Source: Siniperca chuatsi
Lineage: Eukaryota
Assembly (NCBI RefSeq): GCF_020085105.1
Contig: NC_058053.1
Span: 24,477,196-24,541,195, forward strand
Length of the DNA: 64,000 bases
Direction: 5' to 3'
Every line of letters begins with the position of its first letter. Position 1 is the first letter of the stretch. Both the position numbers and the translations under genes were made by a program. The notes beneath the pieces were generated by a model. It had not been told where the DNA came from and searched no databases. It saw nothing but the letters and a program-made list of their open reading frames with translations. Positions 1,796 through 39,824 of this stretch are shown piece by piece.

Positions 1796-2304
1796 ACTGA
1801 CTTGAGAAAGGGGCCGGTCAGTGTCCCTGCAGCCGGGAGCCTTCGCAGCCAACGCCGTCAGCGTACGGCCTGTCAGGTCCGTCAGGCCCCGGTCAGGGCT
1901 GAAACCCGGGTTTCAACCCATCCCGATCCCTACCCGATCCGACTCTTCCTCAGGTTTTCTCTAATCCGGACTCCGGGACTGCTCCCCTTTGTCTGGCGGA
2001 AAGGGCGCCGCCACGGACTAATCTTGAGCCCAAGCTCTTGGCCCCGGGGCTTCTGCCATGGTTAGCCCATCGACCAAGGCTCGCCGCCTGGTGGCCCAGA
2101 AGATGGGGGAGAGCTTGACCCCCCCTCCTGCGGCACTCTGCGGCACCAAGAGGCCCGACGGCTGCCTCGCTCCGGACGAGCCGACCATTCCCCGGCCCTG
2201 GGCGTGGTGCTTGCGCCACACTCTCCGCCTGAACACCCGGGGTTAAGGAGCCCATTGACTCCCGCGCGCTGTCCAGGGGTTTCTTTTCATTCAAAGGCGG
2301 TCTT
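1796..2304. other. Very GC-rich (~65%) CpG-rich segment of unknown nature, abutting a LINE 3' tail
   Basis: Composition by eye. Overlapping ORFs on both strands (1802-2065 +, 1950-2294 -, 2058-2246 +) show no recognisable domains. Confidence 0.35.
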
Positions 2305-2870
2305 TTTTAACGCACTCCATGACGTGCTGGTCAAGCAAAGGAGTACCTTCAGCGGAAGACTCATCCCCACAATGCACCACAGAGCGCCACAGGAAGTCAT
2401 TCCTGCCTGTGGCCATCAAACTCTTTAACTCCTCCTCTAAGTGTTAGTCTGTATGACCCTAAGTCACTAAACTGGACATTGATCATTACATCTCTGCAAT
2501 ACTTGAAACAATCGTGCAATATTCTGTGTAATACTCCTGTGCAATATTTAGTTTTTCCTATTTATTATTCATACCTCCATTACTGCTCTTGCACTACTAC
2601 TTATTACTTATATTATTACATTGCATTATTATACCATATTATCATCATCAACCGGTAAACCCACTTGGTACTGCACACTTATTTTATTTTAGACTTATAC
2701 CCACCTGGTACTTAATTTATTTTCTGACCTGTTTTTATAGTTTTAGAGTGTATTGTATTATATTTTTTTGCTAGTACTTTCTCCTGTGTGCACTGACGTA
2801 AAGGCGAGCTGCTGTAACAAAGACTTTCTCTTGGGGGATCAATAAAGTCTTTCTGATTCTGATTCTGAAA
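2305..2870 (+). mobile_element. Non-LTR retrotransposon 3' end: ORF2 C-terminal tail (...FSGRLIP..RHRKSFLPVAIKLFN), 3'UTR and (TCTGAT)n tail. Rex1/Babar-like CR1-clade family, copy 1 of 4 in this window
   Basis: Near-identical to 42180-42800. Ends with 'caataaagtctttctgattctgattctga'. The tail peptide motif is typical of teleost LINE ORF2 ends (family name is a hedged recollection). Confidence 0.6.
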
Positions 2871-2894
2871 AAGAGCCAACTGAGTCAAAGAACT

Positions 2895-3140
2895 GTCGCC
2901 TCAACTCTGGCCAATGGCCTTCTCGGAGATGTCCCGCCCCTTCCAATCACCGCACAGTATTTGTTCCCGTTAGACAAAACACACAGCCAATCAGATGGCT
3001 GAATTTGTTCCAATTGCGAGAATCAATGTTTTTCGCATCCAATGGGAGAAGCGGATTTGTTCCAATTTCTCTCAGTGATCCCGCCTCCTGCAAGCGGACT
3101 TTTTACTGCAGCGGAGACAGAAGCAAGTCGGTGAGTGAAG
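2895..3140 (+). promoter_or_regulatory. Putative RNA polymerase II promoter plus first non-coding exon: six CCAAT motifs in ~250 bp, GC box 'cccgcccc', then 'gcggagacagaagcaagtcg|gtgagtg' splice donor
   Basis: Motifs read in the sequence (ggccaatgg, tccaatcac, gccaatcag, tccaattgcg, tccaatggg, tccaatttc). Established: NF-Y CCAAT and Sp1 GC boxes are typical of TATA-less promoters. Confidence 0.35.
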
Positions 3141-3699
3141 CATTTGTCAATTATTATGAAGTATTGGACGGAAAACATGTTAAAAACTTATAATTCCGTC
3201 TGACAGTCATACTGAGCTAACCGAGGTGTTTGTATGTTGTGAAATAGTTGAGTGACGGATGACACAGCGTAAAGTTAGAGCATTATTAGTTCTTACAATG
3301 TCAGACTTTAATTTTACTGTAAGGAATTTATTATATAAACGTTTTTATAAATTGCTTTGTTTTAGCCAGCTAACGTTCATGCTGTTAAAACCATTTTAAA
3401 CACTGTACTGCAGGCTGATAGCATGCTAACACACCCACCGCTGTCGGCTGGTCGGTGTGTTTCATACTGCTTATGTGATTAACAGTCCAGCGGAGCTGAA
3501 GGCAGCCGGCATGTTTTATGGGGAAACTAGCAGCTGGTCGAGTGGCTGGTGGATTCCTTAAGCCTTCCTGTTCCACCAGGAGAGAAAGTGCAGCTCCTCA
3601 CCGTATGAATATTCAATTAGCCATGCTGCCAGGAAGGTAAACAGAGGCGGAGCCTGCCATAGGCAACAAGCGGAGAGAAGCAACAGTCAAAAGGTCGCT

Positions 3700-3850
3700 T
3701 TTATTTACAGTTTTTACAATGTACAAAACATCTACTAAGACTCCACACTCTTCTGCAGTAATTCTGTCTCGGTTAAACTGCTTTACAACCCCTGAAGCGC
3801 TTCTCCAGCTTTGCCACAGCCGGGGATCGAACCGCTGACCGCTGAGCCCC
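3700..3850 (-). mobile_element. Possible tRNA-derived SINE fragment (B-box-like GGTTCGATCCC on the minus strand)
   Basis: Reverse complement reads '...ggctcagcggtcagcGGTTCGATCCCcggctgtggca...'. Only the B-box is recognisable. Confidence 0.2.
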
Positions 3851-3877
3851 CTCCTCTTTTTACTCAGTCAATGAACT

Positions 3878-4122
3878 GTCGCCTCAACTCGGCCAATGGC
3901 CTTCTCGGAGATGTCCCGCCCCTTCCAATCGCCGCACAGTATTTGTTCCCTTTAGGCAGAACACACAGCCAATCAGATGGCTGAATTTGTTCCAATTGCG
4001 AGAATCAATGTTTTTCGCATCCAATGGGAGAAGCGGATTTGTTCCAATTTCTCTCAGTGATCCCGCCTCCTGCAAGCGGACTTTTTACTGCCGCAGAGAC
4101 AGAAGCAAGTCGGTGAGTGAAG
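3878..4122 (+). promoter_or_regulatory. Second copy of the CCAAT/GC-box promoter-like module with the same splice donor
   Basis: Same motifs as 2895-3140. Confidence 0.35.
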
Positions 4123-4267
4123 CATTTGTCAATTATTATGAAGTATTGGACGGAAAACATGTCAAAAACTTATAATTCTGTCTGACATTAGTCATAATGA
4201 GCTAACCGAGGTGTTTGTATGTTGTGAAATAGTGAGTGATGGATGACACAGCGTAAAGTTAGAGCCG

Positions 4268-4365
4268 GACCAGACTCCACTCAAGTGGAGACAACATAAA
4301 AGGAAGTGGTGCTGCCAGTGTTCCTCCCTTTTTTCCTCAATCATAACATTCTGTCATTTGGTTAT
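4268..4365 (+). repeat. Interspersed repeat unit (second copy at 11459-11550): '...caagtggagacaacataaaaggaagtggtgctgccagtgtt...gtcatttggttatttt'
   Basis: Two ~90 bp segments at ~90% identity, read by eye. Confidence 0.5.
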
Positions 4366-4435
4366 TTTAAGTGTTACGATTAGTCAAGCCGGGAAACAGG
4401 GAATGCCAGGGAACAGGACCCAAATACTTACTATT

Positions 4436-4438
<3 letters not shown>

Positions 4439-4470
<32 letters not shown>
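4439..4470 (+). repeat. Poly(A) tract (~32 nt)
   Basis: Direct. Confidence 0.95.
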
Positions 4471-4473
<3 letters not shown>

Positions 4474-4799
4474 TTACACTGAATTGGCGGGCAAAGCAAC
4501 TCTCAGTTGGTAAGCAGTCCAAAACAGAAACACAAGTCCCATAGTGAGCAGGCAAAATCTAAAATCCAAAATCTGCAGACAAAATCCACAAGGTCCACAA
4601 GATTCAAGGCCAAGCGGAAGATCTCAGGCTGACGACCCAGGGGCAGGACAGAAACGGGGCAGCGAACCTCAGGACGGTCCGGGGGCAGGACAGATAAAGG
4701 GCTGGGAGCCTCAGGCGGATGGCTCGAGGACTGAAAAGAAGAGCAGAGCAAGTCAGGGGGGCGCCCAGGAGGCAGGGCTGAAGGGCTGAGCAGGTCTCG

Positions 4800-4960
4800 G
4801 TGATGACCAGATGTACGAAGCAACTCAGGAGGTCGGCGACAAAGGCAAAATCCCTCCGGAGGCCGGACTGGAGACCGGCGGCGAAGGCAGAACCTCTCCG
4901 GAGGCCGGCGATGAAGGCGGAACCCTTCCAGAGGAAGGATGTGGCTGCTGCGACCCAACC
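4800..4960 (+). repeat. Minisatellite, ~33 bp unit x3-4 ('ggcagaacctctccggaggccggcgatgaa'-like)
   Basis: Direct. Explains the long proline/arginine-rich ORFs at 4503-5033 and 4604-5020 on the minus strand. Confidence 0.6.
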
Positions 4961-5639
4961 TGAGGCAGGATGCTTGACAGATGTACAATGACGATCTGAC
5001 ACAGAACAAAGGAAGAACACAGACTAAATACACTCAGGTAGGGGAGACAACGAGCTGAACCAGCTGACACAGGTGAAAACAATGAAAGCAATCAAAGACA
5101 GGAAGCCAAACTACCTGACAGAAGAGGGAGGGAGAATATTATAAAACAGGGAAACAGGAAATAACAGGACAAAACCCCAAAACCATTCTTCACATTCAAT
5201 TGGCAAATCTCATACAAGGCGCTTATTGAAGCCGCTTTAGCCTGCCTACCCTTGTTGCTTCCTCTGCAAGCCGCTTTGCAAGCTACCCCAGAACGACCAG
5301 ACTAACAGTGTACGTGCTTCAAATTACCCTGCTGCTTGTCATGTCGATTCCTGTCCATGATGAGGATCCATGGCAGATCGACTGGTATTATGGATTCACA
5401 GCACCAGCGATCTGAAGCAGAGAGTGCCGTTTCCATCCGCCGGTGCTCTCGTCTGGCAAGTAAACATTAAAATACTCCCAGCATTATTTGAATGACCAGT
5501 ACCCAGACTCCTGGAAACCTTATTTCGGAAGACCATTACAGCTCCAGTCGGAGCTTTTCATGAAGAGTTTTTCACATTGTTCGAGGAACATTCCTATCGA
5601 ACTCCCACCTGCAGATATTTTATGATAAAAGTTTTCTTT

Positions 5640-5815
5640 GACTAAAGTGGTCCTGACTGAAATGTTATTTCCACCGTTGTCATGGTTTTGGGTTTTTGTC
5701 CTGCTATTTCCTGTTTTACTTTGTAATATTCTAGCTCCTTCTTGTGTCTGGTAGTTTAGCTTCCTGTCTTTGATTGCTTTCACTGTTTTCACCTATGTCT
5801 AATTGTCTCCCCTAC
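5640..5815 (-). repeat. Inverted partial copy of the 3' part of the 4375-5190 repeat
   Basis: The reverse complement of 5640-5815 matches 5030-5180 ('cactcaggtaggggagacaa...caaaaccatgaca'). Confidence 0.6.
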
Positions 5816-6615
5816 CTGAGTGAATTTACTGTAAGTCTGTGTTTTTCCTTTGCTTAGTGTCAGATCGTCGTTGTACCATGTGCCCTGCGTTTGGCCCCAG
5901 TTCTGCATTTTTCCTATGCCTCTGTGTCCTCTGTGGATTTACCTTTATTGAACTTCTCAAGGATTAGTCTTTGTTGGATGTTTTACCTGAACTTCTTAGC
6001 CGCCCTCAGTTGTTTTTGTCTTCCTTCATAGTAAGTAAATAGTTAAAAGTTATCTTTTGTTCATTTCACCATCTCCGTGTGTATTGTCTACATGTGGGTC
6101 CACCTCCTGAACTGAATGCAACAACTGTGTTTCACTCTGGGCAGCAGGTTGAAGCCCCTACAGCCCCCTCTTTCAGCAGCCAAGTATTATGGACACTGGG
6201 TAGAGATTTTAATGCCAAATTGATATGTAGTGTAAACATTACAAGTATGAACATTTCACTTATGAGCAGCAACTGAAAAGCCCACTCAAAGAAGCTTCTT
6301 TAGAAATAACATTGTTTTCTGTCTACAGTATAGGCTATAACAGTTTTTAGGAACCTGTAAAATATTAAGTTACTTTATTCCTTTTACACTTGTTCTTGTG
6401 ACTGAACATTAAGCAAATCTAGCTTCTGAAAGTTCCTGTTTCAAGTGAGGTGACAACCACTTACCGCACAAACTATATTTACTGTCTTTGAGATGTGACT
6501 TCCTGAATCTAAAGTTCATAACAACTGAACCCAATAAGAGTTTTCTCATTTTCATGTAGAGAAACTTGCGCTCCAGAGTCGACCCTCGACAAAATATCTG
6601 GCATTCTTATGAGCG

Positions 6616-6682
6616 ATGGAGGAAATCTATGTGAATGTTGAATATGACAAATCTGACTCAAAAATGTCACAGAATCAGACAG
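6616..6682 (+). CDS. Lectin A exon 1: cytoplasmic tail MEEIYVNVEYDKSDSKMSQNQT (YxxV motif); ends phase 1 at a GTAAGA donor
   Basis: ATG at 6616. N-terminus 'MEEIY(V/A)NVE' matches fish CLEC4/CD209-like receptors as I recall them. Donor gtaaga at 6683. Confidence 0.75.
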
Positions 6683-6796
6683 GTAAGAATGAGTAGCACA
6701 TAAGCTGACAGACTAAGCTCTGCATAAATGTGTATTATTATCTGTCATATTACTGTTGTATACTTGATTGTATTCACTGGTCTTCTCTGTGTTCAG

Positions 6797-6898
6797 GTCC
6801 CAGGAGCCCAGAGAGCAGGTTTCATGGAGCTGTTGTTCTCTTTCTGGGGCTGCTGAATGTTTTCCTGCTGGCTTTGCTCATCTGCCTCGGTGTCCTCT
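6797..6898 (+). CDS. Lectin A exon 2: transmembrane segment ...GPRSPESRFHGAVVLFLGLLNVFLLALLICLGVL
   Basis: ORF track 6730-6981. 'ttcag' acceptor at 6796, GTGAGT donor at 6899. Hydrophobic 23-aa stretch. Confidence 0.8.
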
Positions 6899-7472
6899 GT
6901 GAGTCTGGTTCACATTCAGAAGTTAGTCAAGCTGAACTCATGATTATAGGAACATCATTCACTTTAACTTTTCATCCATGATTTACTCTGACCTGTTTTT
7001 AAAATTTTTATTTTTTGTTTCGATTGCATTGTTTTCAATATTTTGTACACAATCAAACCTCAAACAGCCAAATCAACATAACAATGCCTCATTTCATTTT
7101 TGTGACGTGTTCAAATTGAATTGGTGCATTTCAGCATTTATCCAGTATCAACTTAATTGCTTATTACACGAGTATCATTTTCAAGACACAAAAGCAGTGA
7201 CATGTTGTATTTCTACTGCTGACAGCTGCACTGAATTACATTTGATGTTCAATTAAACTGCAGTCAAATATGTTCCCTTTACTGAAGACTGCCAGAGTTT
7301 CACTACACTCTTTGAATGGCAGTATTTCATAAGTTTCATTAAGTATGATCATTGATAATCGTGGGACAAAATAAGGAAATATGTAGTCTTGTGAAATACA
7401 ATAGCTCTTTCTATAGAACATGAATGCAGAAGATATCTTGTGTTTCAGAGAAATGTCTCTTGATTATTTCAG

Positions 7473-7667
7473 ACCATAACTCAATACGTGGCTCAGCTGC
7501 AGATTTCTCCACTATCAAAGCCAACCTGACTGAGCGTCTCCAGGCCAGTGATAACAGGTCTTCTTCCCTGACTGAAGCAAGAGACCTGCTGAATGCCAGC
7601 CTCGTTGAAATGGCTAAAGAGTTGAAAAAGCTTCAGAATTTGTCCAAACAGGGAGTACCTGCATGTG
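7473..7667 (+). CDS. Lectin A exon 3: coiled-coil neck (...STIKANLTERLQASDNRSSSLTEARDLLNASLVEMAKELKKLQNLSKQG...)
   Basis: ORF track 7424-7675. Acceptor 'ttatttcag' at 7472. The 3' end was chosen (7667, 'tgtg|gtattt') to keep phase with the next exon; this boundary is uncertain. Confidence 0.6.
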
Positions 7668-8276
7668 GTATTTAGATTTACTTGCTGTTTCTTTAAACAT
7701 TTCTTACTCAGAAATTCCATGATAAAATCACCCTGCATTGTGTTATGGTATTTTTAGTATTTACTCTATGATTTAGTAGCCAGTTTCAGTCCAAAACTAG
7801 AAATTTTATTAATGAAATGTGGATAAAACAAAAGTGGTCTCTATCTCTGCATGTTACTGCATTGTGGCAGTAAATCTTTCTCTCTTCACAGATGACAAAT
7901 TCTAGTTTCATACTGAATGCTAAACTGCGGACACAACAGCTAACTATTCTCTGTTGGCTGCACAAGAGTTACACTGCATGAGATGATCACTAGTAGATGA
8001 GACCATTTATATGGTTCATTTTTTAAACTTTCGTCTTGTTCTTGTGAAAAATGTAATAATTACAATCATAATCAATCAAGCAGGTCAAAAGTTTGAAAAA
8101 ACAAGCAGAAAAATCACAATTTGGAGTCAAGTCTCAAAGTATCCACCAAGGTTACACCAACCAAATGAGCAGCATTAAAGGGTCATTCATTGAAGAAGTT
8201 GACATACAGACCTAACTTCACAAATACATTAACATGAGTCTTGTTGATCTGTAGTTTCTCTTGATATATCTTGCAG

Positions 8277-8419
8277 AGAAAACCTGTCCTGCAGGATGGA
8301 CGATGTTCAGTTATGCCTGTTATTTCCTCTCTGATGAGTCTGGTTCCTGGGATAAAGGCAGAGAGTACTGCAGAGGCAAAGGAGCAGATCTGGTAGTGAT
8401 AACCAGCACTGAAGAGCAG
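8277..8419 (+). CDS. Lectin A exon 4: CTLD part 1 (EKTCPAGWTMFSYACYFLSDESGSWDKGREYCRGKGADLVVITSTEEQ)
   Basis: ORF track 8261-8554. Acceptor 'tcttgcag', donor 'cag|gtactg'. Canonical CTLD start 'CPxGW'. Confidence 0.85.
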
Positions 8420-8777
8420 GTACTGTGTGCGCGTCTTAGCGTTTCCATTAACCTTCTAGCATGTGTTAACACAACACCTAAAAGCAATGTCTACTTTATG
8501 AATTCAATCAATACATATCTGAACATAAATCCCTGCAACAATTCCTCTGTCTGACTGTGGACATCGGACCACACAAAATATCCAGGTGGCCATCTGGCAA
8601 AAGGATTTAATGAAACTCTTTTTTGTTTTTTTTGTTTAATTCTAGGTAATTATAATGACCTAGGTTACAACAATTTAACTTTTACTTTTGTTATTCATAG
8701 ATTCAGATAAATACTTGTAAATGGCACATATTGTGGTTAAAACTAAAATATAATGTGGGTTTCCTTATGTTGAACAG

Positions 8778-8881
8778 CGTTTTCTCTTGGGGTTAACCAA
8801 GAAACCTTCGTGGATTGGTTTGAACGACAGAGATGTGGAGGGGACCTGGAAATGGATAGATGGAACTCCACTGAATCTGAC
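8778..8881 (+). CDS. Lectin A exon 5: CTLD part 2 (RFLLGLTKKPSWIGLNDRDVEGTWKWIDGTPLNLT)
   Basis: Translated by hand. Acceptor 'tgaacag', donor 'gtaagg'. WIGL(N/T)D motif. Confidence 0.85.
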
Positions 8882-10011
8882 GTAAGGCTTCACTTTGGTT
8901 GAATATAGACATGAACATACAACTATCATTTTATATTACTTTATTTGTTTTGGATTGAATTTCCAGCAGAGATTTCTCACAAGCATAGATGCTGTGCATG
9001 CATAACATCTTTTGTTGATGGCCATCTTTGGTGAAGCCCATAACCAAACTACCTGGGCACAGGTAGTCAGTTTTTGGCCGCATGGGGGAACTCAAGTTGC
9101 TAAACTCAAAGCCCTGATGTATAATCACCTTTTTAAAACATTTTATTGCAAATGTGATGGCAAAAATGTACACATCCAGGAGACACAGACCAACATTTAC
9201 TTTCATCTGGACTTAATTAATGTAAGTCAAATGGTCCATCTCTAATTAATTAACTTTCTTTCACCACTATCTCCTGAGAAAAATATGACTCTTTAGCTGC
9301 TTTTTTTTCTTTCACCAGCTAGTCTGTATCTTCATCAGACATTTGGTGCTGGCAGTGTACAGTGTTTATCTGAAATTATTTTGCTAAAAACAGCTTCCTG
9401 CTGCTGGAAATGGAGTTGATGAGTGCAGTAAGACTGAACTATACAGTAAACGTGCCTTAAAAATCAAGAGGTTAAAATGCTGCACAGTTGGGTGATAATT
9501 CTCAGCGAGTTCATCACCGTTAGCAGCGACTTTCATCACACGTAGACATTTGATTCATTGTTAACATAAGAATATTGGGCCTCATGCAAGAGCATTTTCA
9601 TAGTCTTACCCTAAACCTCTTTAGTTTTTTTTTTTTACTCATGTGTTTCAAGTCGAATTCAACAGACTGATAACCTCACAAACTATAAAATTACTCGTTC
9701 AGGTGAGGAGGTGCAAGTTTGCGATTTTATCATTATCATAATCAATTTTCCTATAATCAGATCTCTAAGTTTAAAAAACAAAACTAAAATTGACAAACCA
9801 TAATGAGGACCCCCCATGACTAATGCTGCTTCTTGGAGGACAGTTTCTTTAGAAAACACTACAAATGAGCCATTTCAAAGATATGAGAAATTTCCCAAAT
9901 TAGGATGATATTGGACCCAGTGTTTCAGAAAAATGACTTGTTCAGCCACTGAAGGGCTGCGTTCATGTAAGAGAAACAGTGTCATGATTCTCTTGTTCAC
10001 TGACCTGCTAG

Positions 10012-10162
10012 GTACTGGCACAACAATCAGCCTGATAATGGTGGCGGGAGCCAAAAGTGGGGTGAAGAGGACTGTGCACATATCAGAACGGAGTGGAGCA
10101 ATCATTGGAATGATTTATCATGTAATGCTGCTCTGCAATGGATCTGTGAAAAAATTGCGTAA
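10012..10162 (+). CDS. Lectin A exon 6: CTLD part 3 (YWHNNQPDNGGGSQKWGEEDCAHIRTEWSNHWNDLSCNAALQWICEKIA*), QPD motif
   Basis: Hand translation in the phase inherited from exon 5. Not in the ORF track, whose 9933-10205 ORF is in another frame. QPD = Gal/GalNAc-type Ca2+ site; WND and the cysteines are conserved. Confidence 0.85.
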
Positions 10163-10334
10163 CACTGTTACATATAAAAGATTTGCGGATCCTTTTACAA
10201 TGTAAGCTATGATTACGCAAAGCTTTAGTAATAAGTGTTCATGTATGTTTGTAAAATGTATGTATGCGATTGTGCTGAAGACTGTGCTGTACAAATTTAA
10301 ACACCTCAAAATTGCAGCTGTAGCTAAATAGAAA

Positions 10335-10340
10335 AATAAA
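10335..10340 (+). promoter_or_regulatory. AATAAA polyadenylation signal, ~175 nt after the lectin A stop
   Basis: Hexamer read in the sequence. Confidence 0.4.
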
Positions 10341-11458
10341 GTAGAACATTGAAATGCACCTAATGATGATGATGATAGACCGTCTGTCTTTTCCAATGCC
10401 TCACTTTTCTACTAACTAAAAGTAAATATACACAATTTTTAGAATAATTATCCACAATAATGTTTTTTTTTTTTCTTTTTTAATGAATCCCTTTTTTTCC
10501 CAGGGAGTGATTAACAAAAAAAATATTTATTTCTCAGAAGTAATCACTTTAAAACCACAGGAACTATTCTATTCTAATGTGAAATCTATTTTTGTGGTGG
10601 TATGTAGCCAGAGACACGGCAATTAATCTGTATAGTGATATTTATGTCAATAAAATTATCATGGGGAATTGGCCGTTTATGCAGTCATGGAAACAGCTCT
10701 AATGCTGTGTTCGCCATTGAAGTTTTGCTCAATCGCTTGTGGAAGTAGCATAGCGCCAGTTAACTTAGCTAAATAACACAGTACCACAGCTAGCCATTGT
10801 GGTTTAAAAATGCACGTTACATACCTACCGGGTGCTCCCGTAGCCAGGTGCATTAAAGGGTAGGGTTAACAGCAAGAATATGTTTTTCTTCCATTTCTTC
10901 AGACGGAACAGAATGGGACCGGTGAAACCAAATCAGATGATTGGTGGACGCTTCAAAGTTGAGGCCAGCTCAACAGTGTCGGGCGTCAGTTTGTAGCTTC
11001 ATGTCACCGGCTTCCATTGAAAATGACTTGTAGCCTGATGCTTTGTCGCCAGTAGTCTGAACACAGCATAATGCTTCACTCATAGTTGTGGCAGTTTTGT
11101 TGCATGTTGGCAGCAGTCTATGATGCATGACAAGAGCCTATCTATGATAACACAATTTAGGTATAGAGTAAATATATATAGAGTATCAAACACATACTAC
11201 ACCCTGTAGAAGGTGGTATAAAGTTTGTAGCTTCGTACTTCACAGAGAGCAAAGTCTGCTTGGATTTGTGATGAGTGCAGTTTACTTCAATGGTGACTGT
11301 CACTGGAGAAAAGTATCAAAACATCTTCACGGCTAAATACTACTAGAGGAACTACTAGGTGTTTTTATTTATTATTTTTTTGATCATTGGTTAAATGGGT
11401 GGTTTTTGCAGACAAATTGTTAGCAAGCACTTCTTCACCAGCTAATTTTTATATTTCA

Positions 11459-11550
11459 CATTCAAGTGGAGACAACATAAAAGGAGGTGTTGCTGCCAGT
11501 GTTACTTCCTCTGTCCTCAATGTACTGTCATTTGGTTATTTTTCCTCTTT
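11459..11550 (+). repeat. Second copy of the 4268-4365 repeat unit
   Basis: Aligned by eye. Confidence 0.5.
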
Positions 11551-11799
11551 GTAGCACAAGTTAGAACTCACATGCATAATACTTAAAGCACAATCCTGCG
11601 TTCTTTGATCAACAGTTCACTGCAGATATAACAGATGACCAGATCCTGTGTTTGTTTAAAAAATAAATGCTATTCATAAGTATGGTCATATTAGCAATCT
11701 TGTTATCATGCAGGTTTACACTACTGTTACATCTGATACTATCTCTGATAATTTTGCCTATTTTTTTCTTGTCACTAGTAGTCACACCCAGTGGTGAAC

Positions 11800-12260
11800 A
11801 TTTCATACTGTACTTATTTTGAGGTACTTTTCTTGATACCATTTTCTACTACTTTATACTTCTACTCCACTACATTTTAGAGGCAAATAGTGCACTTTTT
11901 ATACCACTACATTTATTTAATAACTTTAGTTACTTTGCAGATTCAGATTAATAATACATTATATGATCAACAAATAACTGATGTATTATTACGGGTAAGA
12001 TAAGACATTAATGAAAAAATATAGAAATTCACAAGCTGCCCAGCAGAATATAAAGTAATTAAAATTTGCCCCACCTTTACCTGCTGCAACACTAAAAGGA
12101 TGTACACATTTATGCATCAATAATTATTCTGAAACGGGCCATTTTGCATAATTAGTACTTGCTAGTAATAAAATTGCTAGTACGTGCTTTAAATATATTT
12201 TGATGCTAATACTTTTGTACATTACTTGAGTAAAGTTTTGAATGTAGGACTTTTACTTGT
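11800..12260. repeat. Teleost 'tacttgagtaaaagtac / acttaagtacagtacttg' repeat family (probable non-autonomous DNA transposon); one of >=5 copies
   Basis: Characteristic palindromic 'agtacttaagta / tacttgagtaaa' words. Other copies at 15840-16215, 16600-16770, 44760-45175 and 49185-49320. Confidence 0.45.
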
Positions 12261-12995
12261 AACAGATTATTTCTACACTATTGCCAATCACTGGTCACAT
12301 CATAGCACACCACTAGAATGTGTTATCGTGATGCTGCAGATCACTTTATGCCTATTTTTAAAGAGGTGCAACCTCCTCCCATGATAACAGCTTGCTATTA
12401 CCACTGTTCTGGAGTAAAAGTAATTAGGGCAAGTCTGGTGGGTTGCAGCTGTATTCACTCCTGTGTGTTGGTCAGGACACATTAGCAGGAGCACAGAGTT
12501 ACTGATTTCTTTATGAATGTTGACCAGTGGATATTCAAGCAACAGAATCCTCCAAATATGGTCTGGAAAAACACAAAGAAAAATACAGGATATCTCAATC
12601 TAAAGCATACCCAACAAACGTAAACAAATGACATAAATAACTTGAAGCGAACAGATTGCATAATGAATACCTGGTTATACTGGAAGTCAGTAATACACCC
12701 TGCACAAACTGCACTACAAATGCTGTAGACATTCTGGTAAATAGTTGGCTATGCCACATTAGAAGAGAGCTGACACTACCCTCTAGTAGGCAGGTTTTTT
12801 ATCTGCAATGTAGCTGGATTTAATTAGAACAAATGGAACTAATGGACTACATTTCTGCAGCTTTCTGCATTTGTCCCCCTTTTAAAATGTAAAAACTTGA
12901 ATATGGCACCAAAATGAAATGAGGCATTGTTTTATTAATTTGGCTGTTTGGGTTTGATTTCTTTTCTGTGTACATTCACAAAATATTGAACCTAC

Positions 12996-13012
12996 CTAAC
13001 CCTAACCCTAAT
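12996..13012 (-). repeat. Short interstitial telomere-like repeat (CCCTAA)2.7 exactly at the truncation point of a duplicated lectin TM exon
   Basis: 'ctaaccctaaccctaat' read directly. It abuts the 3'-truncated exon copy at 13014. Confidence 0.6.
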
Positions 13013-13013
13013 G

Positions 13014-13111
13014 GACACCGAGGCTGATGAGCCCAGCCAGCAGGAAAACACTCAGCAGCCCCAGACAGAGAACAACAGCTCCACGAAACCTCCTCTCTGA
13101 GCTCCTGGGAC
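13014..13111 (-). pseudogene. Lectin paralog C: TM-exon-like copy (SGPRSSERRFRGAVVLCLGLLSVFLLAGLISLGV), 3'-truncated
   Basis: The reverse complement matches the TM exons of A and B, with the 'ctgtgttcag' acceptor retained. The last ~6 nt and the donor are replaced by TTAGGG-like repeats. Confidence 0.6.
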
Positions 13112-13237
13112 CTGAACACAGAGAAGACCAGTGAATACAGTCAAGTATACAACAGTAATAATGACAGATGATGATAACAATAAACATCTATTCACAGCTC
13201 AGTCTGTCAGTCTCTCAGTCTGACTGAACATTCTTAC

Positions 13238-13289
13238 CTGTCTGGGTATTTAAGGGTCTTGGGTCAACAGGTTTGTCGTGTTCCTCCAT
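13238..13289 (-). pseudogene. Lectin paralog C: exon-1-like copy (MEEHDKPVDPRPLNTQT, gtaaga donor) lacking the IYVNVE (YxxV) segment
   Basis: Reverse complement aligned with B exon 1 (MEEIYVNVEHAKPVDARPSTNQT). Similar upstream flank. Confidence 0.5.
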
Positions 13290-13329
13290 TGATGCCGACT
13301 ATTTTATGAAGGGTCACCTCTGCAGCACA

Positions 13330-14395
13330 TGCTACGTTACATGTAAATGACTTAAGTTGTCTGCAGGACAAACTCTCCCAGCTGAGTGTGACTGACTCCA
13401 CCTGCAGGTGGATCACACACTTCCTGTCCGACAGGAGGCAGCACACAAGGCCGGGGAAACGTGTCTCTGACTCCCGGACCATCAGCACCGGTTCCCCCAA
13501 GGCTGCGTTCTTTCGCCTCTGCTCTTCTCCCTGTACGCCAACAGCTGCACCTCCAGTCATCAGTCCGTCAAGCTCCTGAAGTTCACGGATGACACCACCC
13601 TCTTGGGCTCATCTCTGATGGGGATGAGTCCGCTTACAGGTGGGAGATTGACCATCTCATGATCTGGTGCAGTCAGAACAACCTGGAGCTCAATGCTCTC
13701 AAGACAGTGGATATAGTTGTGGATTACAGGAAGAACCCAGCCCCACCTGCCCCCATCACCCTGTGTGACTCCCCAGGTGACACTGTGGAGTCCTACGCTT
13801 CCCGGACACCATCATCACCCAGGAGCTCAAGTGGGAGCTGAACATCAGGTGATTGGCTGCAATCTACCTTCCCTCCAGGACCTGTACGCCTCCAGGACCC
13901 CGAGGCTGCAGGAAAGATTGTGGCAGACCCCTCCCACCCTGGACACAATCTGTTTCAGACACTCCCCTCCGGCAGGAGGCTGCGGTCCAAAAGGACCAAA
14001 ACCTCACGCCACAAAAACAGTTTCTTTCTGTCTACAGTTTCTTTCCGTCAGGACCCCCACTGACACTGACTCCCATAACCACCCAACTCACCCCTTTTAG
14101 TACAGACTGTACAACTTTTGCACATTCCCATGTAAATATTTTGCACATCTCTGCACAAACTGTAATTTAAATAAGTCATATTGTACATATACTTTATTAT
14201 TTTCTTATGCTCTTTTTAAATATTATTTAATATCTTATTGTCAATTTTATCTTATATTTATGATTCTTGACCTGCAGTACTTGCTTTATCTTTCCTCATA
14301 TTTCTACTATGTTTACTGTTTTGCGCCAAAATACCAAAGCAAATTCCTTGTATGTGTGAACCTACTTTGCAGTAAAGCTGATTCTGATTCTGATT
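13330..14395 (+). mobile_element. 5'-truncated non-LTR retrotransposon (RT domain ...GAPQGCVLSPLLFSLY...FTDDTT... with frameshifts, then the ORF2 tail ...LQDLYASRTPRLQERL...HPGHNLFQTLPSGRRLRS... and a ctgattctgattctga tail). Copy 2 of the Rex1/Babar-like family
   Basis: ORF track 13388-13579, 13659-13841, 13717-14100 and 13853-14170. RT motifs read by hand. Confidence 0.7.
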
Positions 14396-14678
14396 GGAGG
14401 AAGCAATCGGAGGAAACAGTCAATTTTATTATCAGATTAATTTACCAAAATCCATCAAAAAGATAATAATGATAAAGTGCATTTCAGGGTAATACTTCAT
14501 TATAGTATGCAGTATATTCAGTGTAATGTGTTAGCTAACTTTAAGGCAGCTTCGTTTCACTGCATATGGTAGCCATCAGCACAGTATAACACAATAACAC
14601 TATTAAAGGCCTTTTGTATAATCATAACTTACATTGTTAAAGTATTTTCAAATGTATTATTTCAAATCTCATTAAAAT

Positions 14679-14832
14679 CTAAGCCAGTTTTTCACAGATC
14701 CATTGCAGAGAGGCATCACACCGCAGGTCGTTCCAGTTTTTAGTTTCCTTGCTAGCATTGATGTGTGCACAGTCCTCTTCCCCCCACCGTGGATCTCCAC
14801 GACCATTATCAGGCTGCATGCTCAGCCAGTAC
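14679..14832 (-). CDS. Lectin B exon 6: CTLD part 3 (YWLSMQPDNGRGDPRWGEEDCAHINASKETKNWNDLRCDASLQWICEKLA*), QPD motif
   Basis: Hand translation in the inherited phase. Stop TAG at 14679-14681. Confidence 0.8.
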
Positions 14833-15106
14833 CTAGGAGGTTAACAAGAAAGTTCATTTTCACAGGATTGGCCAAAGCCCCCAATAAATGCAGCTTTAAG
14901 TTTTCCAGTGAACTAATTTGTGGAGATAAAAAAATTGGATTTGAAGTCAACTTATGAGTTACAAGTAATGTTGCAAATTCAGTTCAGTCTGATTCTGATA
15001 ACAATTATTTAGACAAGCATACAACAATAAACTTAGTCATGTACAGCAATAGTTGTATATGTGTCTATATTCAAATAAGGTGTAGAACATGTACTGTATG
15101 CCTTAC

Positions 15107-15213
15107 TCCAGAGTCAGTGGCGTTTCATCAGTCCACTTCCAGGTGCCCTCACTGTCTCTGTCATTCAAACCAATCCAAACAGAAGATCCTTCCTTGAACT
15201 TAGTGAGGAATTC
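15107..15213 (-). CDS. Lectin B exon 5: CTLD part 2 (EFLTKFKEGSSVWIGLNDRDSEGTWKWTDETPLTL)
   Basis: Hand translation. 'gtaagg' donor. Confidence 0.8.
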
Positions 15214-15839
15214 CTGTTCAAGGTAAACGAAAGAAAGCCAGTATTCATACTTTAATTTTAACCATTCTATATATGCAATTTACAGGAATTAATTCAAACA
15301 CTCCGATAATAATTCAGTTTTATTGGGCTCAAAAATATATTAACTATTATAATTGTAACCTAATCATTATAGCTGATACAGTTAATGTTATTTCAGAATT
15401 GTATGTCCACACCTGTATCTACCACATATACATAGAGTAAAAATTCATAACAAAAGATGGGAGGGCATGAGTTAGTTGGTGTTTTCTATATGCAGGCGAG
15501 AAACAAAAACATATGTGGATGAGGAAAACTTCAATCTGAAGGAGGCAAAGGGGAAAGATTTGATTTGCCATGTTGCCACCATTATTATCCACTTTTAAAA
15601 CTAAAGGTGACGTCAGAGTGATATTCAATCCCTATTTATTCCAAGGTTCAAGGTTCAATTTATTCATCCATAAATTTATAGAAATTACATTGCTCCCAAT
15701 CGAATCAACCAACTCTGATTTCAGAACACAAGAAATAAATACCCATCAAATAAAGACAAACATAAAAAGAACATAAAAACATATTCCACAATAAAAAGTA
15801 TATATATATATAATAAAAAGCTGAAAAGTGCAGCTTGGT

Positions 15840-16215
15840 GAAAAGGAGAAAGTGTGGTCAGTGGTGGCAGAAGTACTCAGATCTTTTTCTTAAGTAGAAG
15901 TAGCAATAACACAGTGTAGAAATACTCTGTTACAAGTAAAAGTCATGCAGTACAAAGGAACACATTTATAATAATACATGATAGTTTATTTGTTGATAAA
16001 ATGTTGTATTAATAATCTGAATATGCAAAGTTACTAGTAACTAAAGCTTTAAAACAAATGTAGCGGAGTAAAAAGGACAATATTTGCCTTTGAAATGTAG
16101 TGGAGTATATGAATAAAGTAGCATAAAAAAGGAAATACACAAGTACCTCAAAAATGTACTTATGTACAGTTACGTAATTCCAAGGTCTTGGAATTTTTCT
16201 TTTTATAGAAAACTG
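15840..16215. repeat. Copy of the 'tacttaagtaaaagtac' repeat family (in a lectin B intron)
   Basis: Same motif words. Confidence 0.45.
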
Positions 16216-16396
16216 GACAAAAACGTTGTGTACATAAAGCATTTAGGAAGTTGAAGTTGAGTCATTTTTATTTTTAGTCACAAATTTGTCTCAGATGGCT
16301 TTACAATCTATACAACACACAGCACCCTCTATATAGAGAGCCCTGATTCGGGTAAGGAAAAACTCCATATAAAAGGGATAAAGTAGCACACACTAC

Positions 16397-16539
16397 CTGT
16401 TCTTCATAACTGTCTATTACCACCAGATCTGCTCCTCTGTTTCTACAGTCTTCTCTGCCTTTTTCCCATGATGCATACTCAGTGGAGAGAAGATAACAGG
16501 TACAACTGAACATCCTCCATCCTGCAGGACAGGTTTTCT
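16397..16539 (-). CDS. Lectin B exon 4: CTLD part 1 (KTCPAGWRMFSCTCYLLSTEYASWEKGREDCRNRGADLVVIDSYEEQ)
   Basis: ORF track 16301-16513 (-). 143 nt, the same length as A exon 4. Confidence 0.85.
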
Positions 16540-16599
16540 CTGAAATGCATCAAACAAAAGACATTAAAGATCAGAAAAGACCCATGTCTGTCTATCTGA

Positions 16600-16770
16600 G
16601 AGGTTGTGGATTCAATGCATGTTCTGTGGATGGCAATGTTTGAGAAATAACCAAGTAATGTACAAGTACCTAAAAATTTTACTTACGTGCAGTGCTTACA
16701 GTACACCCCTACTCCTCACACTCTACTATAAGTCAAATTATTTATTAGATTAAATGACTTATTACTTACA
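16600..16770. repeat. Copy of the 'tacttaagtaaaagtac' repeat family
   Basis: Same motif words. Confidence 0.4.
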
Positions 16771-17313
16771 GTACTATTTCTAACTCACATGATGCACATC
16801 AGAAAAAAGGAAGGCGATATTAAAATAATTCCTGGGAAGCAAAAATATTGTAACTTGGAAATCACCATATAAAGAAGTTGTACTATCATGAAGCAGATCA
16901 CAATCGTATGAGGAAGTGAAAGTCTTTCAAATGCAGAACTGAGGATCCGTTCAGTCTGTCAATGACAGCAGCTGCTTGGAATAAAACATCCTGCTGAGGG
17001 AAAGTGTTGTAGTCCTGCATGTTTCTTTCCAGTCCAGTTTTTTAGGGAACAGTTTAAGCAAAGAAGTCTGTTCACCTTGGAAGCAAGTTATGACTCAGCT
17101 GTTGCATATGACTGTTAATGTAGCTTCACACATACAGTGGCCGCATTTAAAACCTAATATTTGGACTGAAACTCTGGCTTTTAGCTATAAAATTGAGCTG
17201 AGAGTAGGATATAACAGTGTCATATAAGCCTGTTCTCTGGATCATGGTGTGGGTCCTGACCTAACCTCATGTTAAGAGACAACTGTGCAGAACCCACACA
17301 GGCAAGCACTCAC

Positions 17314-17448
17314 TCTGTTTCGACAAACTCTGCAGCCTGTTCAACTCTTTAGTCGCTTCAGTAAGGTTGGCATTCAGCAGGTCTCTCTCTTCAGAGACGG
17401 AGGACAGGTTGGCTTTGATAGTGGAGAGTTCTGAAGATGAATCACGGT
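17314..17448 (-). CDS. Lectin B exon 3: neck (RDSSSELSTIKANLSSVSEERDLLNANLTEATKELNRLQSLSKQ)
   Basis: Hand translation. GTGAGT donor. Paralogous to the A neck. Confidence 0.7.
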
Positions 17449-17698
17449 CTGATATAAATCAAGATACACGTTTCTTAAACAGCAAATCCTTCATGCATTC
17501 ATACTGATACTGTCTTAAGTTTCTATACTTTGGTAAAAAAATCAAGTCTATATCATTTTGCTGCTCTAGCTGCTTGAACATGACTTTTTACTATGGGTGG
17601 AAAAATTCATATTCATGGAAAATATATTTACAAAACAAGTACTTCATGAGGTCAATGTTTAATTTAATTCATTTCAAACTTATGAAAACCAGACTCAC

Positions 17699-17800
17699 AG
17701 AGGACACCGAGGGTGATGAGCCCAGCCAGCAGGAAAACACTCAGCAGCCCCAGAAAGAGAACAACAGCTCCATGAAACCTGCTCTCTGGGCTCCTGGGAC
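17699..17800 (-). CDS. Lectin B exon 2: TM segment (...GPRSPESRFHGAVVLFLGLLSVFLLAGLITLGVL)
   Basis: ORF track 17664-17870 (-). Same acceptor and donor context as gene A. Confidence 0.8.
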
Positions 17801-17898
17801 CTGAACACAGAGAAGACCAGCGAATACAGTCAATAATACAACAATAATAATGATAGAAAATAATACACATTCATTCACAGCTCAGTCTGAGTTGTTAC

Positions 17899-17968
17899 TT
17901 GTCTGATTTGTTGAAGGTCTTGCATCGACAGGTTTGGCATGTTCAACATTGACATAGATTTCCTCCAT
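17899..17968 (-). CDS. Lectin B exon 1: MEEIYVNVEHAKPVDARPSTNQT (YxxV motif)
   Basis: Hand translation of the reverse complement. GTAACA donor. Coordinates +/-2. Confidence 0.7.
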
Positions 17969-22642: not shown

Positions 22643-23857
22643 CCTGCAACACACAGATAAATGTTTCAATTTTTCATTTCCTATGCAAACCAATGTCCCA
22701 CTTCCCCACGGACTGCTAGTATGAAAAAGCATGCTAATAGTCAAGGACAAAAAAATATGTTTTTTTAAATCCAAGAAAGACAAAAAAACAGTACTGTAAG
22801 TTGCTTTGGACAAAAGCGTCTACTAAATGAATGCAATGTAATGCAATATGTTACACGTTATATACAGTATGATGACACTGAAATTGCTTAGTAAGAGATT
22901 GTAAGGAAAACCCTGTGGTGAAAGGAATGACATTTAATAAAAATAAACTTTCAAACTATGGCAGAACTTAACTTAAATATTGCTAAAACTGACGCAAAGC
23001 AACTGCTTTTGTAGCCCAAATTGGCTCTGCTCATGGACGCATGCTGTCAGAATACATCATTGAAACTGCTGACATTAAATCACTCACAACACTGTCTGTT
23101 AAGAAATGGTTCCAGTGTTTGAACAAAGTGCAATGCAGGCTTCGTGACAGATAGTGGTCCTAGAACAATGGGTTACAAAAAAAATAAATCAAAAAATCAA
23201 AAGATCAGAATTGATAAACCTTTCTCAAAGAAGACATTTTAACTTTCTGCAGGAAAAGCAAAGGTTTAATTTAGGCACACAAGTAAGCCAGCATACAAAA
23301 TATTAGGGCCCTGGAATTGCTACACCTGAATGAAATGCAGCCATGATTTATGTTTTTAGTTTAAGCTAAGTTTAGTTTCATCTGTTCATTGGCTACATTC
23401 AAGTAGACCCAATGAAGTTTTATCATATCTTACTGAATGCTGCATCTTGAAGATCTTTGTCCATCTGAGCTTCAGTACTTCAGGATCTGCTGCCTCTCTC
23501 CTGAAACAACATGATCACAGCAGGACACTCTTAGTGAATATTGACAATGATGTGACAGCTGTTCTATATTAACAACACACATGCATCCAGAAATGTAAAC
23601 ATAAACACACACTTATGCTGACTTTCTTTTCCTTCCACATGCATAGATGCATACATAGGACAAATAACTTTCAGTCCATTAGTCAGTTAACATACAGATG
23701 ATGTAGTCTGTTTTCATTTTTTCAACCAAAACCTTGCCACCATTTCAAATGAGTAAAGCATTTTGACAACAACAATTGATTCACAAGAATTATTATTAGG
23801 GTTTTCTAAGTTGAAGCATATCTAAATAATAATAATAATAATTGTTTTTGGACTTAC

Positions 23858-24813
23858 TCGAAGGGTCGATGAACTGGTAAAAACAGAGGATCAGGGTGCT
23901 TCATGCCTGACGCAGGATAAGCCTTCTGCAAAGCTCGGGGGCGACTTAGACTACTATTTAAAATCCCACTCCCGAAAACAGGCTGAGGTACACCTCCATC
24001 AGGGGCAAATTCACTCTGGGCCTGACTTGCCCCAAAAGAAAAAAATGTTGGTTGAACTGCTTCAGGCATTCTTAATGAGCCTAGTGCCATCCTTTTCTTA
24101 CGTGGGAATTTGTTTTCAAGTTGGTGCATCGACGGATGCAATGCATCTTTTGTTGGATAATCCCATTTAAGGGGTTGGACTTGAGGCAGAAGGGGTTCTG
24201 AAGTCCCAGAAAATTCCTCTCTAACTTTAGAGCCACTGAAACCAAAACCTGATTGTTGAACTTCAAAACTGTGTTCTCTCCTCCCCACCCCAAAGAGAGG
24301 CTTGTGTAAGCAGTGATCTCTTTTTGAATTTCTAGTGAAATCATCTGTAGAAGGTGCAGGTGCAAGTCCTGTGTAAGAGAGGATTTTCATAGAGGCAGGG
24401 GAACTATTGTTTGTGCCATAAGACTCAGCAGCCAACTGAGGCATGCCTAGATCACCACTGAGAAGATTCCTGATGTCTCTGAGCGTGGGAATTTCAGGTA
24501 AAAAGGAAGCTTGCATCCTTAAGTTCCCTGAACTTATATGTGTCACCACTGACTCACTGACTAGAACTGACTCATCATAATGGAGAGAGGGAGAGGGTTT
24601 TCTAGCTACAGGAGGAGGAGATGGGCAAGGAGGAGGAGGAGGAGGAGGAGGAGGAGGATCAAATGAGAGGCCTGGATGAACACTGAAAGTGTGCGACTCG
24701 GGTTGCGGAAGTCTGTCGCACAGATAAAATCCCACTTCTTCAGATTCCATCTCTTCATACGCCTCTTCCACACAAACATTTTCCTCATCTCTCATATAAA
24801 AAATGTCGTCTTC
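23858..24813 (-). CDS. PARP4: PARP4 large proline-rich exon (EDDIFYMRDEENVCVEEAYEEMESEEVGFYLCDRLPQPESHTFSVHPGLSFDPPPPPPPPPPCPSPPPVARKPSPS...KHPDPLFLPVHRPFE); ~318 codons
   Basis: ORF track 23854-24795 (-, 313 aa). Acceptor 'ctgttgtag', GTAAGT donor. Corresponds to the long low-complexity Pro/Ser-rich exon of vertebrate PARP4. Confidence 0.8.
24628..24659 (+). repeat. PARP4: (GGA)n trinucleotide repeat inside PARP4 coding sequence; encodes the poly-proline run (P10) on the minus strand
   Basis: 'ggaggaggaggaggaggaggaggagga' read directly. Confidence 0.9.
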
Positions 24814-24918
24814 CTACAACAGAGAGACAAATACAGCTCATAAAAGTGTCAATTAGTAAATCACAACAAGTAAATTGGCTCTTTCCTTCCCCCCCGATTT
24901 CACAAAACTCACACACAC

Positions 24919-25080: not shown

Positions 25081-25254
25081 CTAAAACAAGGTAGAGAAGC
25101 TTGGTTTGGTTGGGAGCTACAAAACATGATGTTACAAAACCTTAAAATCCAGGGTGTAAAGTGAGTGGGTGAGTGGGTTGGTTGCCCTGGGCAGCTACCA
25201 GATATAAATACAAATAACCTTATAAATGTGAAAGAGGCTGAAAAATGCACAAAC

Positions 25255-39818: not shown

Positions 39819-39824
<6 letters not shown>

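Follow-up and report, generated by a model that had tools for sequence, protein, structure and literature searches.

Among the group II C-type lectins, a fish-specific, over-represented and tandemly clustered 'DC-SIGN subgroup' without assignable tetrapod orthologs has been described (Zelensky & Gready 2004, PMC514892). Its members have a type II topology, with a neck and a single long-form C-type lectin-like domain (hereafter CTLD), and lie among clustered paralogs. At positions 5-8 of the tail, ASGR1 carries YQDL and CLEC10A (also named MGL) carries YENF, and CLEC10A reportedly requires phosphorylation of Y5 both to be internalised and to signal through Src/Syk/ERK (PMC7404283). Fish Mincle is described as a receptor with a short tail that lacks signalling motifs and as dependent on FcRgamma (PMC11929736). 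Here we describe a locus of the mandarin fish Siniperca chuatsi contained in a 64,000-nucleotide stretch of contig NC_058053.1 (assembly GCF_020085105.1, positions 24,477,196 to 24,541,195 of the forward strand), referred to below as the window. It carries two full-length lectin receptor genes, A and B, and a fragment of a third, copy C. We read this locus, with a probability of roughly 0.78, as two intact and old tail-to-tail paralogs from a branch of the group II C-type lectin receptors that is particular to teleosts, accompanied by the dead 5' remnant of a third gene.

A six-frame motif scan located the peptide MEEIYVNVE at 6616 on the plus strand and at 17968 on the minus strand, with QPD, WND and WIGLNDRD motifs in corresponding places on both strands, and the exons were assembled by direct reading of the sequence (Table 1). 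Gene A extends from its ATG at 6616 to 10162 on the plus strand and gene B from its ATG at 17968 to 14679 on the minus strand. Each has six exons and an open frame, of 253 aa in A and 236 aa in B, and GT-AG boundaries are found at all 10 introns of the two genes. In both, the exons encode in order the cytoplasmic tail, the transmembrane segment, the neck and three parts of the CTLD, with intron phases 1,1,1,0,2; exons 2 and 4 have equal lengths in A and B while exons 1, 3, 5 and 6 do not. The stop codons (10162 and 14679) lie 4,516 bp apart, tail to tail. An earlier interpretation made from the DNA letters, here called the sequence-only reading, had described precisely this arrangement: a convergent pair about 4.5 kb apart, six exons of this order with several equal lengths and phases, a QPD motif and an N-terminal MEEIYVNVE in both genes. 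It had put the deficit in the neck of B at about 5 residues, an underestimate. The neck exon of B is 60 nt shorter than that of A, so that B lacks 20 residues, the last 5 of which (GVPAC) stem from the exon 3-4 junction of A. At this junction, which the sequence-only reading had marked for confirmation by RNA-seq, the donor after 7667 is the sole in-frame solution and reproduces the NCBI protein; the ancestral-looking GT at 7655 was tried and rejected, as it gives an exon of 182 nt and a frameshift with stops. Searches by tblastn with A and B as queries, at E up to 10, revealed no credible further CTLD exons beyond the three copies.

The protein of A is identical over its full length (100%) to the NCBI Siniperca chuatsi protein 'CD209 antigen-like protein E' (P0001, 253 aa), and that of B, likewise at 100% and full length, to 'C-type lectin domain family 4 member E-like isoform X2' (P0066, 236 aa). 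Both lie on a chromosome record of 29.97 Mb. The two genes are therefore annotated already and our models agree with the public ones, which makes the value of the present analysis mostly one of annotation. The two proteins share 63% identity (BLASTP). Matching of the translations to Pfam Lectin_C (PF00059), a check that the sequence-only reading had proposed, gave E-values of 5.5e-24 for A and 6.8e-24 for B, above the gathering score. Nearly all named proteins among the 120 best homologs come from percomorph fishes, under the automated names CD209-like A/C/E, CLEC4E-like, CLEC10A-like, ASGR1-like and hepatic lectin-like, and these 120 closest homologs share the tail motif and a QPDNGGGxxxWGEEDC loop. 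A literature search on the function of the mandarin fish genes A and B found nothing specific. A and B are ordinary members of a known, fish-expanded and clustered family of immune receptors of the membrane lectin type.

Both genes are intact and encode predicted type II membrane proteins with a full Ca2+-type carbohydrate-recognition domain (CRD) under purifying selection. The sole strongly hydrophobic segment covers residues 35-53 of the A protein and 36-54 of the B protein; from an N-terminal tail, a single hydrophobic window and a C-terminal CTLD we infer the type II topology. No charged residue is present between residues 34 and 56, the transmembrane segment. The AlphaFold2 model, built with 95 homologs, has a mean predicted local distance difference test (pLDDT) score of 81, exceeding 90 in the CTLD; the tail (residues 1-29) is disordered and residues 32-115 form one continuous helix combining the transmembrane segment and the neck. 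The neck comprises about 64 residues in A and about 45 in B. The three cysteine pairs of the long-form CTLD are complete in A (C125, C136, C153, C225, C241, C249) and in B (C106, C117, C134, C207, C224, C232). Each ectodomain has a seventh, unpaired cysteine: C121 in A, within the GVPAC insert (7653-7667 region), and C115 in B, part of the CxC of the family. In A the first cysteine of this CxC is lost and a new one appears in the insert. The shifted unpaired cysteine may represent a relocated inter-chain disulfide.

Across 95 aligned homologs, P211, E223, C225 and W236-N237-D238 (A numbering) are invariant, and D186, E190, D212, N213, E222 and D224 are each kept by 90% or more of the homologs. 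We take these conserved residues of A to be the ligands of Ca2+ sites 1 and 2, on the basis of an alignment with DC-SIGN and ASGR1 and of established knowledge of CTLDs. In the 120 homologs, WND occurs 117 times and QPD 97 times, and 11 proteins carry EPN on the same long-loop scaffold.

The single-domain matches of a PDB sequence search came in the order CLEC4F, CD209/DC-SIGNR, Mincle, ASGR2, CL-P1, CLEC10A, BDCA-2 and ASGR1, all of them group II or close to group II; multi-CTLD proteins head the raw ranking because their domain scores add up. The best homology accordingly falls within the CLEC4/ASGR group (CLEC4F, CD209, CLEC4E, ASGR2, CLEC10A), where the sequence-only reading had placed it; the refuting outcome which that reading had named, a best match elsewhere, did not occur. 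A Foldseek search with the AlphaFold2 model placed MGL (6py1, a GalNAc complex) and ASGR1 (5jq1) on top, both at a TM-score of 0.91, with DC-SIGNR, SRCL, ASGR2 and Mincle as runners-up at differences within noise (E 5e-14 vs 1e-13). A neighbor-joining tree (Kimura-corrected p-distance, 300 bootstraps) was computed from 22 fish CRDs and human ASGR1, CLEC10A, CD209, CLEC4E, FCER2, CD207 and CLEC4A, all references being checked against PDB entries, with rat MBP-C as outgroup. In this distance tree with few references, the 22 fish CRDs group together in a single clade with 91% bootstrap and the human references fall outside it; the sister of the clade is ASGR/MGL in 25% and CD209 in 19% of the replicates. 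B pairs with protein P0021 of Micropterus salmoides (93%) and A, weakly, with a Chaetodon protein (55%). The CTLD of A is 47.5% identical to human CD209, 42.7% to CLEC4E, 41.1% to CLEC10A and 39.5% to ASGR1, and that of B is 43.8% identical to CD209.

The fish clade agrees with the fish-specific 'DC-SIGN subgroup' of Zelensky and Gready (PMC514892). A and B have its topology, its neck and single long-form CTLD and its clustered paralogs, and the subgroup, without a 1:1 tetrapod ortholog, includes the annotated proteins identical to them. Nothing essential sets this locus apart from the subgroup; its local particulars are the convergent orientation, the apparently homogenised 5' exons and the dead third copy discussed below.

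A different affiliation, the strong form of the sequence-only reading, would make A and B true orthologs of ASGR/MGL, devoted to hepatic or macrophage clearance of Gal/GalNAc ligands, with a simple YxxPhi signal driving constitutive endocytosis via clathrin. The likenesses are considerable. The fish proteins share with ASGR1 and MGL the QPD/WND motifs, a loop of 10 residues between QPD and the glutamate of EDC (NGGGSQKWGE in the fish, DWYGHGLGGG in ASGR1, against 4 residues in DC-SIGN), a histidine after the cysteine (CAH, also in CLEC10A), a helical neck and the top Foldseek ranks; a tyrosine at position 5 is found as in ASGR1 and MGL (PMC7404283), and the clade has members (P0120, P0189) with an ASGR-like QPDEW loop. 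Such orthology is nevertheless improbable. Against it stand the well-supported fish clade that leaves out the human references and the low bootstrap for sistership; the Foldseek preference lies within the noise among group II CRDs. CTLD identity to ASGR1 and CLEC10A, at 39-41%, is lower than to CD209 and CLEC4E, and phmmer bit scores are greater for CLEC4F and CD209. The tryptophan at QPD+2 is missing, the fish tryptophan standing 6 residues after the place of QPDxW (QPDNGGGSQKW in A vs QPDDWYGHGLG in ASGR1), the GGG run opens the loop in the fish and closes it in ASGR/MGL, and the fish neck is much shorter. Moreover, Fugu is described as possessing a separate single ortholog of the ASGR family (HML2) beside a fish-specific DC-SIGN-like cluster (PMC514892). 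The sequence-only reading, which had called A and B ASGR/CLEC10A-like receptors, thus holds for group II membership, for the motifs of the binding site with its loop and CAH histidine and for the structural match; an affiliation with ASGR/MGL, however, is not demonstrable, given the separate fish clade, the low sistership value and the lacking QPDxW tryptophan.

Read literally, the NCBI names would make A a homolog of DC-SIGN (CD209) and B a homolog of Mincle (CLEC4E), with mannose or glycolipid specificity and, for B, coupling to FcRgamma. These names are borne by the identical NCBI proteins, and the human references closest in CTLD identity are CD209 and, after it, CLEC4E. A and B also share with CD209 the WIGL-x-D-x-x-x-EG-x-W-x-W-x-DG core and the GEEDC motif, and with Mincle, including fish Mincle (PDB 9kpl, Takifugu), a group II CTLD at about 40% identity. 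The literal reading is scarcely credible all the same. A and B have QPD in place of EPN, on a loop of 10 residues instead of the 4 of CD209. Exon 3 of neither gene contains 23-residue neck repeats as in DC-SIGN according to Tandem Repeats Finder, a DNA-level search, no protein-level repeat search having been run, and the tail sequences of A and B contain no LL in the manner of the DC-SIGN di-leucine. In contrast to Mincle, the transmembrane segment offers neither Arg nor any other charge for FcRgamma and the tail carries a conserved tyrosine motif; judged by published criteria (PMC11929736), the uncharged transmembrane segment, the QPD and the motif-bearing tail together speak against the name 'CLEC4E-like'. 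Both names are the product of automated best-hit transfer, a point made for Gnomon names in the same study (PMC11929736). From barramundi, a QPD-bearing 'mincle-like' gene is on record (cited in PMC11929736), which probably belongs to the same fish family as A and B. The automated names (CD209-like E, CLEC4E-like) therefore mislead on function, the motifs pointing to galactose-type, adaptor-independent receptors.

The tails of A and B both open with MEEIYVNVE, so that Y5-V-N-V occupies positions 5-8. Among 103 homologs with a tyrosine at position 5, position 2 is acidic in 101, position 3 in 95 and position 9 in 85; position 4 is Ile or Val in 96, position 6 is variable, position 7 is Asn in 98 and position 8 is Val or Ile in 86. 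The I-Y-x-N core is also kept in representatives of 50%-identity clusters with very different CRD loops, where position 8 is sometimes A, D or E; the search for representatives was dominated by giant multi-CTLD proteins, and about 30 single-CTLD ones were usable. The core persists in fish group II lectins whose CRDs have exchanged QPD for EPN or a long loop for a short one, or the reverse. A homolog search with the N-terminal 80 residues returned 2 short matches and was uninformative on the taxonomic range of the tail module. The fish Y-x-N-V occupies exactly the positions 5-8 of the ASGR1 and CLEC10A motifs and shares with CLEC10A the Asn at +2.

The sequence-only reading had seen in the tail a YxxPhi endocytosis-like motif. 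This was reasonable, given its ASGR1/MGL position; the constraint, however, is more specific, being Y-x-N. Such conservation of the Asn exceeds what YxxPhi asks for and is in keeping with a pYxN-type motif for phosphotyrosine docking, without making uptake and signalling exclusive of each other. The consensus pYxN is that of Grb2-family Src homology 2 (SH2) domains. Most likely, M-[ED]-[ED]-I-Y5-x-N7-[VI], equivalent in position to the motifs of MGL and ASGR1, would act as a phosphorylatable motif for internalisation and signalling. Two other assignments were compared. An immunoreceptor tyrosine-based inhibitory motif ([S/I/V/L]-x-Y-x-x-[I/V/L]), as in inhibitory lectin receptors such as DCIR, was rejected because Y-2 is Glu (M-E-E-I-Y, with Ile at Y-1). 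For the hemITAM of the Dectin-1 cluster, a single-tyrosine variant of immunoreceptor tyrosine-based activation motifs (ITAMs) with an acidic cluster ahead of x-Y-x-x-L, the fish tails have E-E-I-Y, but Y+3 is Val or Ile, not Leu, in 86/103 homologs.

A narrower reading sees in the conserved tail mainly a pY-x-N docking site for Grb2-family SH2 domains, or a hemITAM-like element as in CLEC9A (EEIYTSL), which would make A and B signalling rather than cargo-uptake receptors; we regard this as a tentative possibility. It would account for an Asn at Y+2 as conserved as the tyrosine while Y+1 is free, and kept even where Y+3 is A, D or E in divergent representatives. The acidic residues and Ile before the tyrosine form a favoured context for Src-family substrates, and the transmembrane segment has no charge with which an ITAM adaptor could pair. 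MGL too has Asn at +2 in its YENF, and signalling by way of Src/Syk/ERK has been reported for it (PMC7404283). On the other side, Y-x-N-V satisfies YxxPhi as well, Val at +3 is unusual in ligands of the Syk SH2 domains, the motif counts are not independent given the common phylogeny of the homologs, and the case is drawn from sequence only. A bolder extension, which we find rather doubtful, would hold that I-Y-x-N is a dedicated pYxN (Grb2-family SH2) docking site of a self-signalling, adaptor-independent fish family, that the YENF of MGL is its tetrapod relic, and that gene conversion keeps the 5' exons uniform while the CRDs diversify. Outside the CRD, no feature of the family is more strongly conserved than the tail motif in common with mammalian MGL, which makes it a reasonable target for studies of pathogen uptake or signalling in aquaculture species.

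The third, partial copy that the sequence-only reading had noticed between A and B is confirmed on the minus strand at 13289-12890. The coding-like part spans 13289-13010, matched by tblastn at E 4e-11 and by blastn at 86-89% identity; after it, a piece resembling intron 2 extends down to 12890. Copy C is the dead 5' remnant of a third gene and has only the equivalents of exons 1 and 2; the neck and CTLD exons (3-6) are missing, tblastn giving no CTLD match between 10163 and 14678. Its exon 1 piece equals exon 1 of B minus an in-frame 18 nt, through which exactly IYVNVE is lost. Its exon 2 piece runs straight into a TAG stop without a GT donor, the open reading frame ending in LISLGVH, and the place of the lost donor is occupied exactly by a short telomere-type repeat (12995-13011), possibly a trace of break repair. 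The use of copy C as an alternative 5' exon of B was considered and rejected, since it lies downstream of the last exon of B, has no splice donor and meets a stop. The remnant is head-to-tail with B, on the same strand and downstream, and convergent with A.

Its intron-2-like fragment is 87% identical to a part of intron 2 of A (7051-7117) and 95% identical to Micropterus L001:22579-22664, an 86-bp intergenic piece found just downstream of the gene for Micropterus salmoides P0021, the closest relative of B, which is followed by a paralog on the same strand. This comparison, superficial and confined to one Micropterus salmoides locus (L001), hints that the B-to-C tandem arrangement is old. The 86-bp non-coding piece is single-copy in the Siniperca and Micropterus samples and more conserved than the adjoining exons. 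Between the 3' end of B and copy C lies a degenerate reverse-transcriptase fragment of a long interspersed nuclear element (LINE), which begins about 100 bp upstream of the ATG of copy C and whose stitched peptide matches Pfam RVT_1 (E 1.3e-9). A repeat of about 185 bp, probably a transposable-element fragment, is found in inverted orientation and at 77% identity in the A-B intergenic DNA (11817-11991) and in intron 4 of B (15969-16153).

The divergence of A and B differs along the genes. By the Nei-Gojobori method, the number of synonymous substitutions per site (dS) and the nonsynonymous to synonymous ratio (dN/dS) are 0.78 and 0.30 in the CTLD, 0.26 and 0.75 in the neck, and 0.22 and 0.64 in the tail; in the transmembrane segment dS is 0, with 0 synonymous and 5 nonsynonymous differences. 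When 94 homologs are ranked by tail plus transmembrane segment, A and B come first or second for one another; by neck and CTLD they take ranks from 32nd to 62nd. They also have derived residues in common, SPESRF, LFLGLL and GVLY, the counterparts in the family consensus and in copy C being SSERRF, LCLGLL and GVH(Y). This pattern suggests that the 5' exons (6616-6898 and 17968-17699) were homogenised between A and B by gene conversion. The CTLD dS, and CTLDs that are closer to genes of other percomorphs than to each other, argue against a recent local tandem duplication; the sequence-only reading, in proposing a local tandem expansion, overstated its recency. Most simply, A and B can be read as paralogs of old standing that would predate the split from other percomorph lineages.

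One or both of the full-length copies could instead be non-functional and decaying in the manner of copy C. A dead copy does exist in the same cluster, and for a different percomorph, high polymorphism including nonsense variants is reported in members of the family (PMC11346364). Full open frames, canonical splice sites at every intron, intact Ca2+ ligands and cysteines in both genes and the low dN/dS of the CTLD make this very improbable.

In the mechanism proposed here for two functional receptors, A and B would be type II membrane glycoproteins whose single neck helix, as modelled, could assemble into a coiled-coil oligomer that presents multiple CRDs dependent on Ca2+. Through the QPD/E/WND site they would bind terminal sugars of the galactose type in a Ca2+-dependent manner, by ligation of the 3- and 4-OH; the 10-residue Gly-rich loop and the CAH histidine, features associated with GalNAc preference, favour such binding by analogy with ASGR1/MGL. 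A transmembrane segment without charged residues argues against an FcRgamma or DAP12 partner, so that output would pass through the receptor's own tail: ligand engagement would act on Y5-x-N7-V8 and lead to uptake, to signalling by way of SH2 domains, or to both, with no ITAM adaptor involved. Given that their CRD loops differ (GGGSQKW in A vs GRGDPRW in B), as do adjoining surface residues, the two receptors probably have different ligand fine specificities. Several points weigh against the reading of the locus developed here. In ASGR/MGL a tryptophan (QPDxW) stacks on galactose; in A and B it is shifted by 6 residues (W220 in A, W202 in B). Exceptions to the EPN/QPD rule are reported for fish CRDs, a bass DC-SIGN of the EPN type being inhibited by mannose and galactose alike (PMC11084180), and the sugar specificity assigned to A and B is read from their motifs. 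Gene conversion, finally, is deduced from few synonymous sites (0 of ~22 in the transmembrane segment).

Table 1. Features of the lectin receptor locus, with positions in the window.
Feature	Positions	Strand	Length (nt)	Basis
Gene A exon 1: cytoplasmic tail MEEIYVNVEYDKSDSKMSQNQT, phase 1 end	6616..6682	+	67	ATG and GT donor
Gene A exon 2: juxtamembrane and transmembrane segment	6797..6898	+	102	AG/GT boundaries, hydropathy
Gene A exon 3: helical neck, A-specific GVPAC extension at end	7473..7667	+	195	Only in-frame GT donor; AlphaFold2 helix
Gene A exon 4: first CTLD exon	8277..8419	+	143	Assembled exons, Pfam
Gene A exon 5: second CTLD exon, WIGLNDRD, Ca2+ site 1 ligands D186, E190	8778..8881	+	104	
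Gene A exon 6: third CTLD exon, QPD210-212, loop NGGGSQKWGE, E223, C225-A-H227, WND236-238, stop codon included	10012..10162	+	151	Assembled exons, residue conservation
Copy C intron-2-like fragment; lectin-gene homology stops here	12890..12985	-		blastn
Short telomere-type repeat, (CCTAAC)2.8 on plus = (TTAGGG)n on minus	12995..13011	.		Tandem Repeats Finder, sequence reading
Copy C exon-2-like piece (transmembrane segment)	13010..13111	-		blastn: 86% identity to A, 89% to B
Copy C exon-1-like piece, reads MEE-HDKPVDPRPLNTQT	13238..13289	-	52	Sequence reading, blastn/tblastn
Degenerate frameshifted LINE reverse-transcriptase fragment	13390..13850, limits approximate	+		Three-frame translation; RVT_1
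Gene B exon 6: third CTLD exon, QPD192-194, loop NGRGDPRWGE, WND219-221, stop codon included	14679..14832	-	154	
Gene B exon 5: second CTLD exon	15107..15213	-	107	Exon assembly
Gene B exon 4: first CTLD exon	16397..16539	-	143	Exon assembly, Pfam
Gene B exon 3: neck, 20 codons fewer than A	17314..17448	-	135	Exon assembly, alignment
Gene B exon 2: transmembrane segment	17699..17800	-	102	Exon assembly, hydropathy
Gene B exon 1: cytoplasmic tail MEEIYVNVEHAKPVDARPSTNQT	17899..17968	-	70	Exon assembly; NCBI protein identity

Elsewhere in the window, a large gene occupies 23854-42025 on the minus strand, its 3' end facing the 5' end of gene B. Its exons match BRCT (41.6-42.0 kb) and VIT (31.2-32.7 kb), one exon is vWA-like (29.3-29.6 kb), and it terminates in a proline-rich open reading frame of 313 aa (23854-24795), an architecture typical of PARP4 (vault PARP). 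A retroelement insertion at 43899-44741, also on the minus strand, is represented by a 280-aa open reading frame encoding the C-terminal part of a reverse transcriptase (Pfam RVT_1, E 3e-14). The first 6 kb (1-6000) have a G+C content of 46-52%, compared with about 37-40% elsewhere, and contain overlapping open reading frames on both strands with repetitive proline/arginine-rich translations (e.g. 4503-5033). A (CT/AG)n-type microsatellite at 57765-58211 is translated as a long SLSLSL run in a spurious open reading frame.

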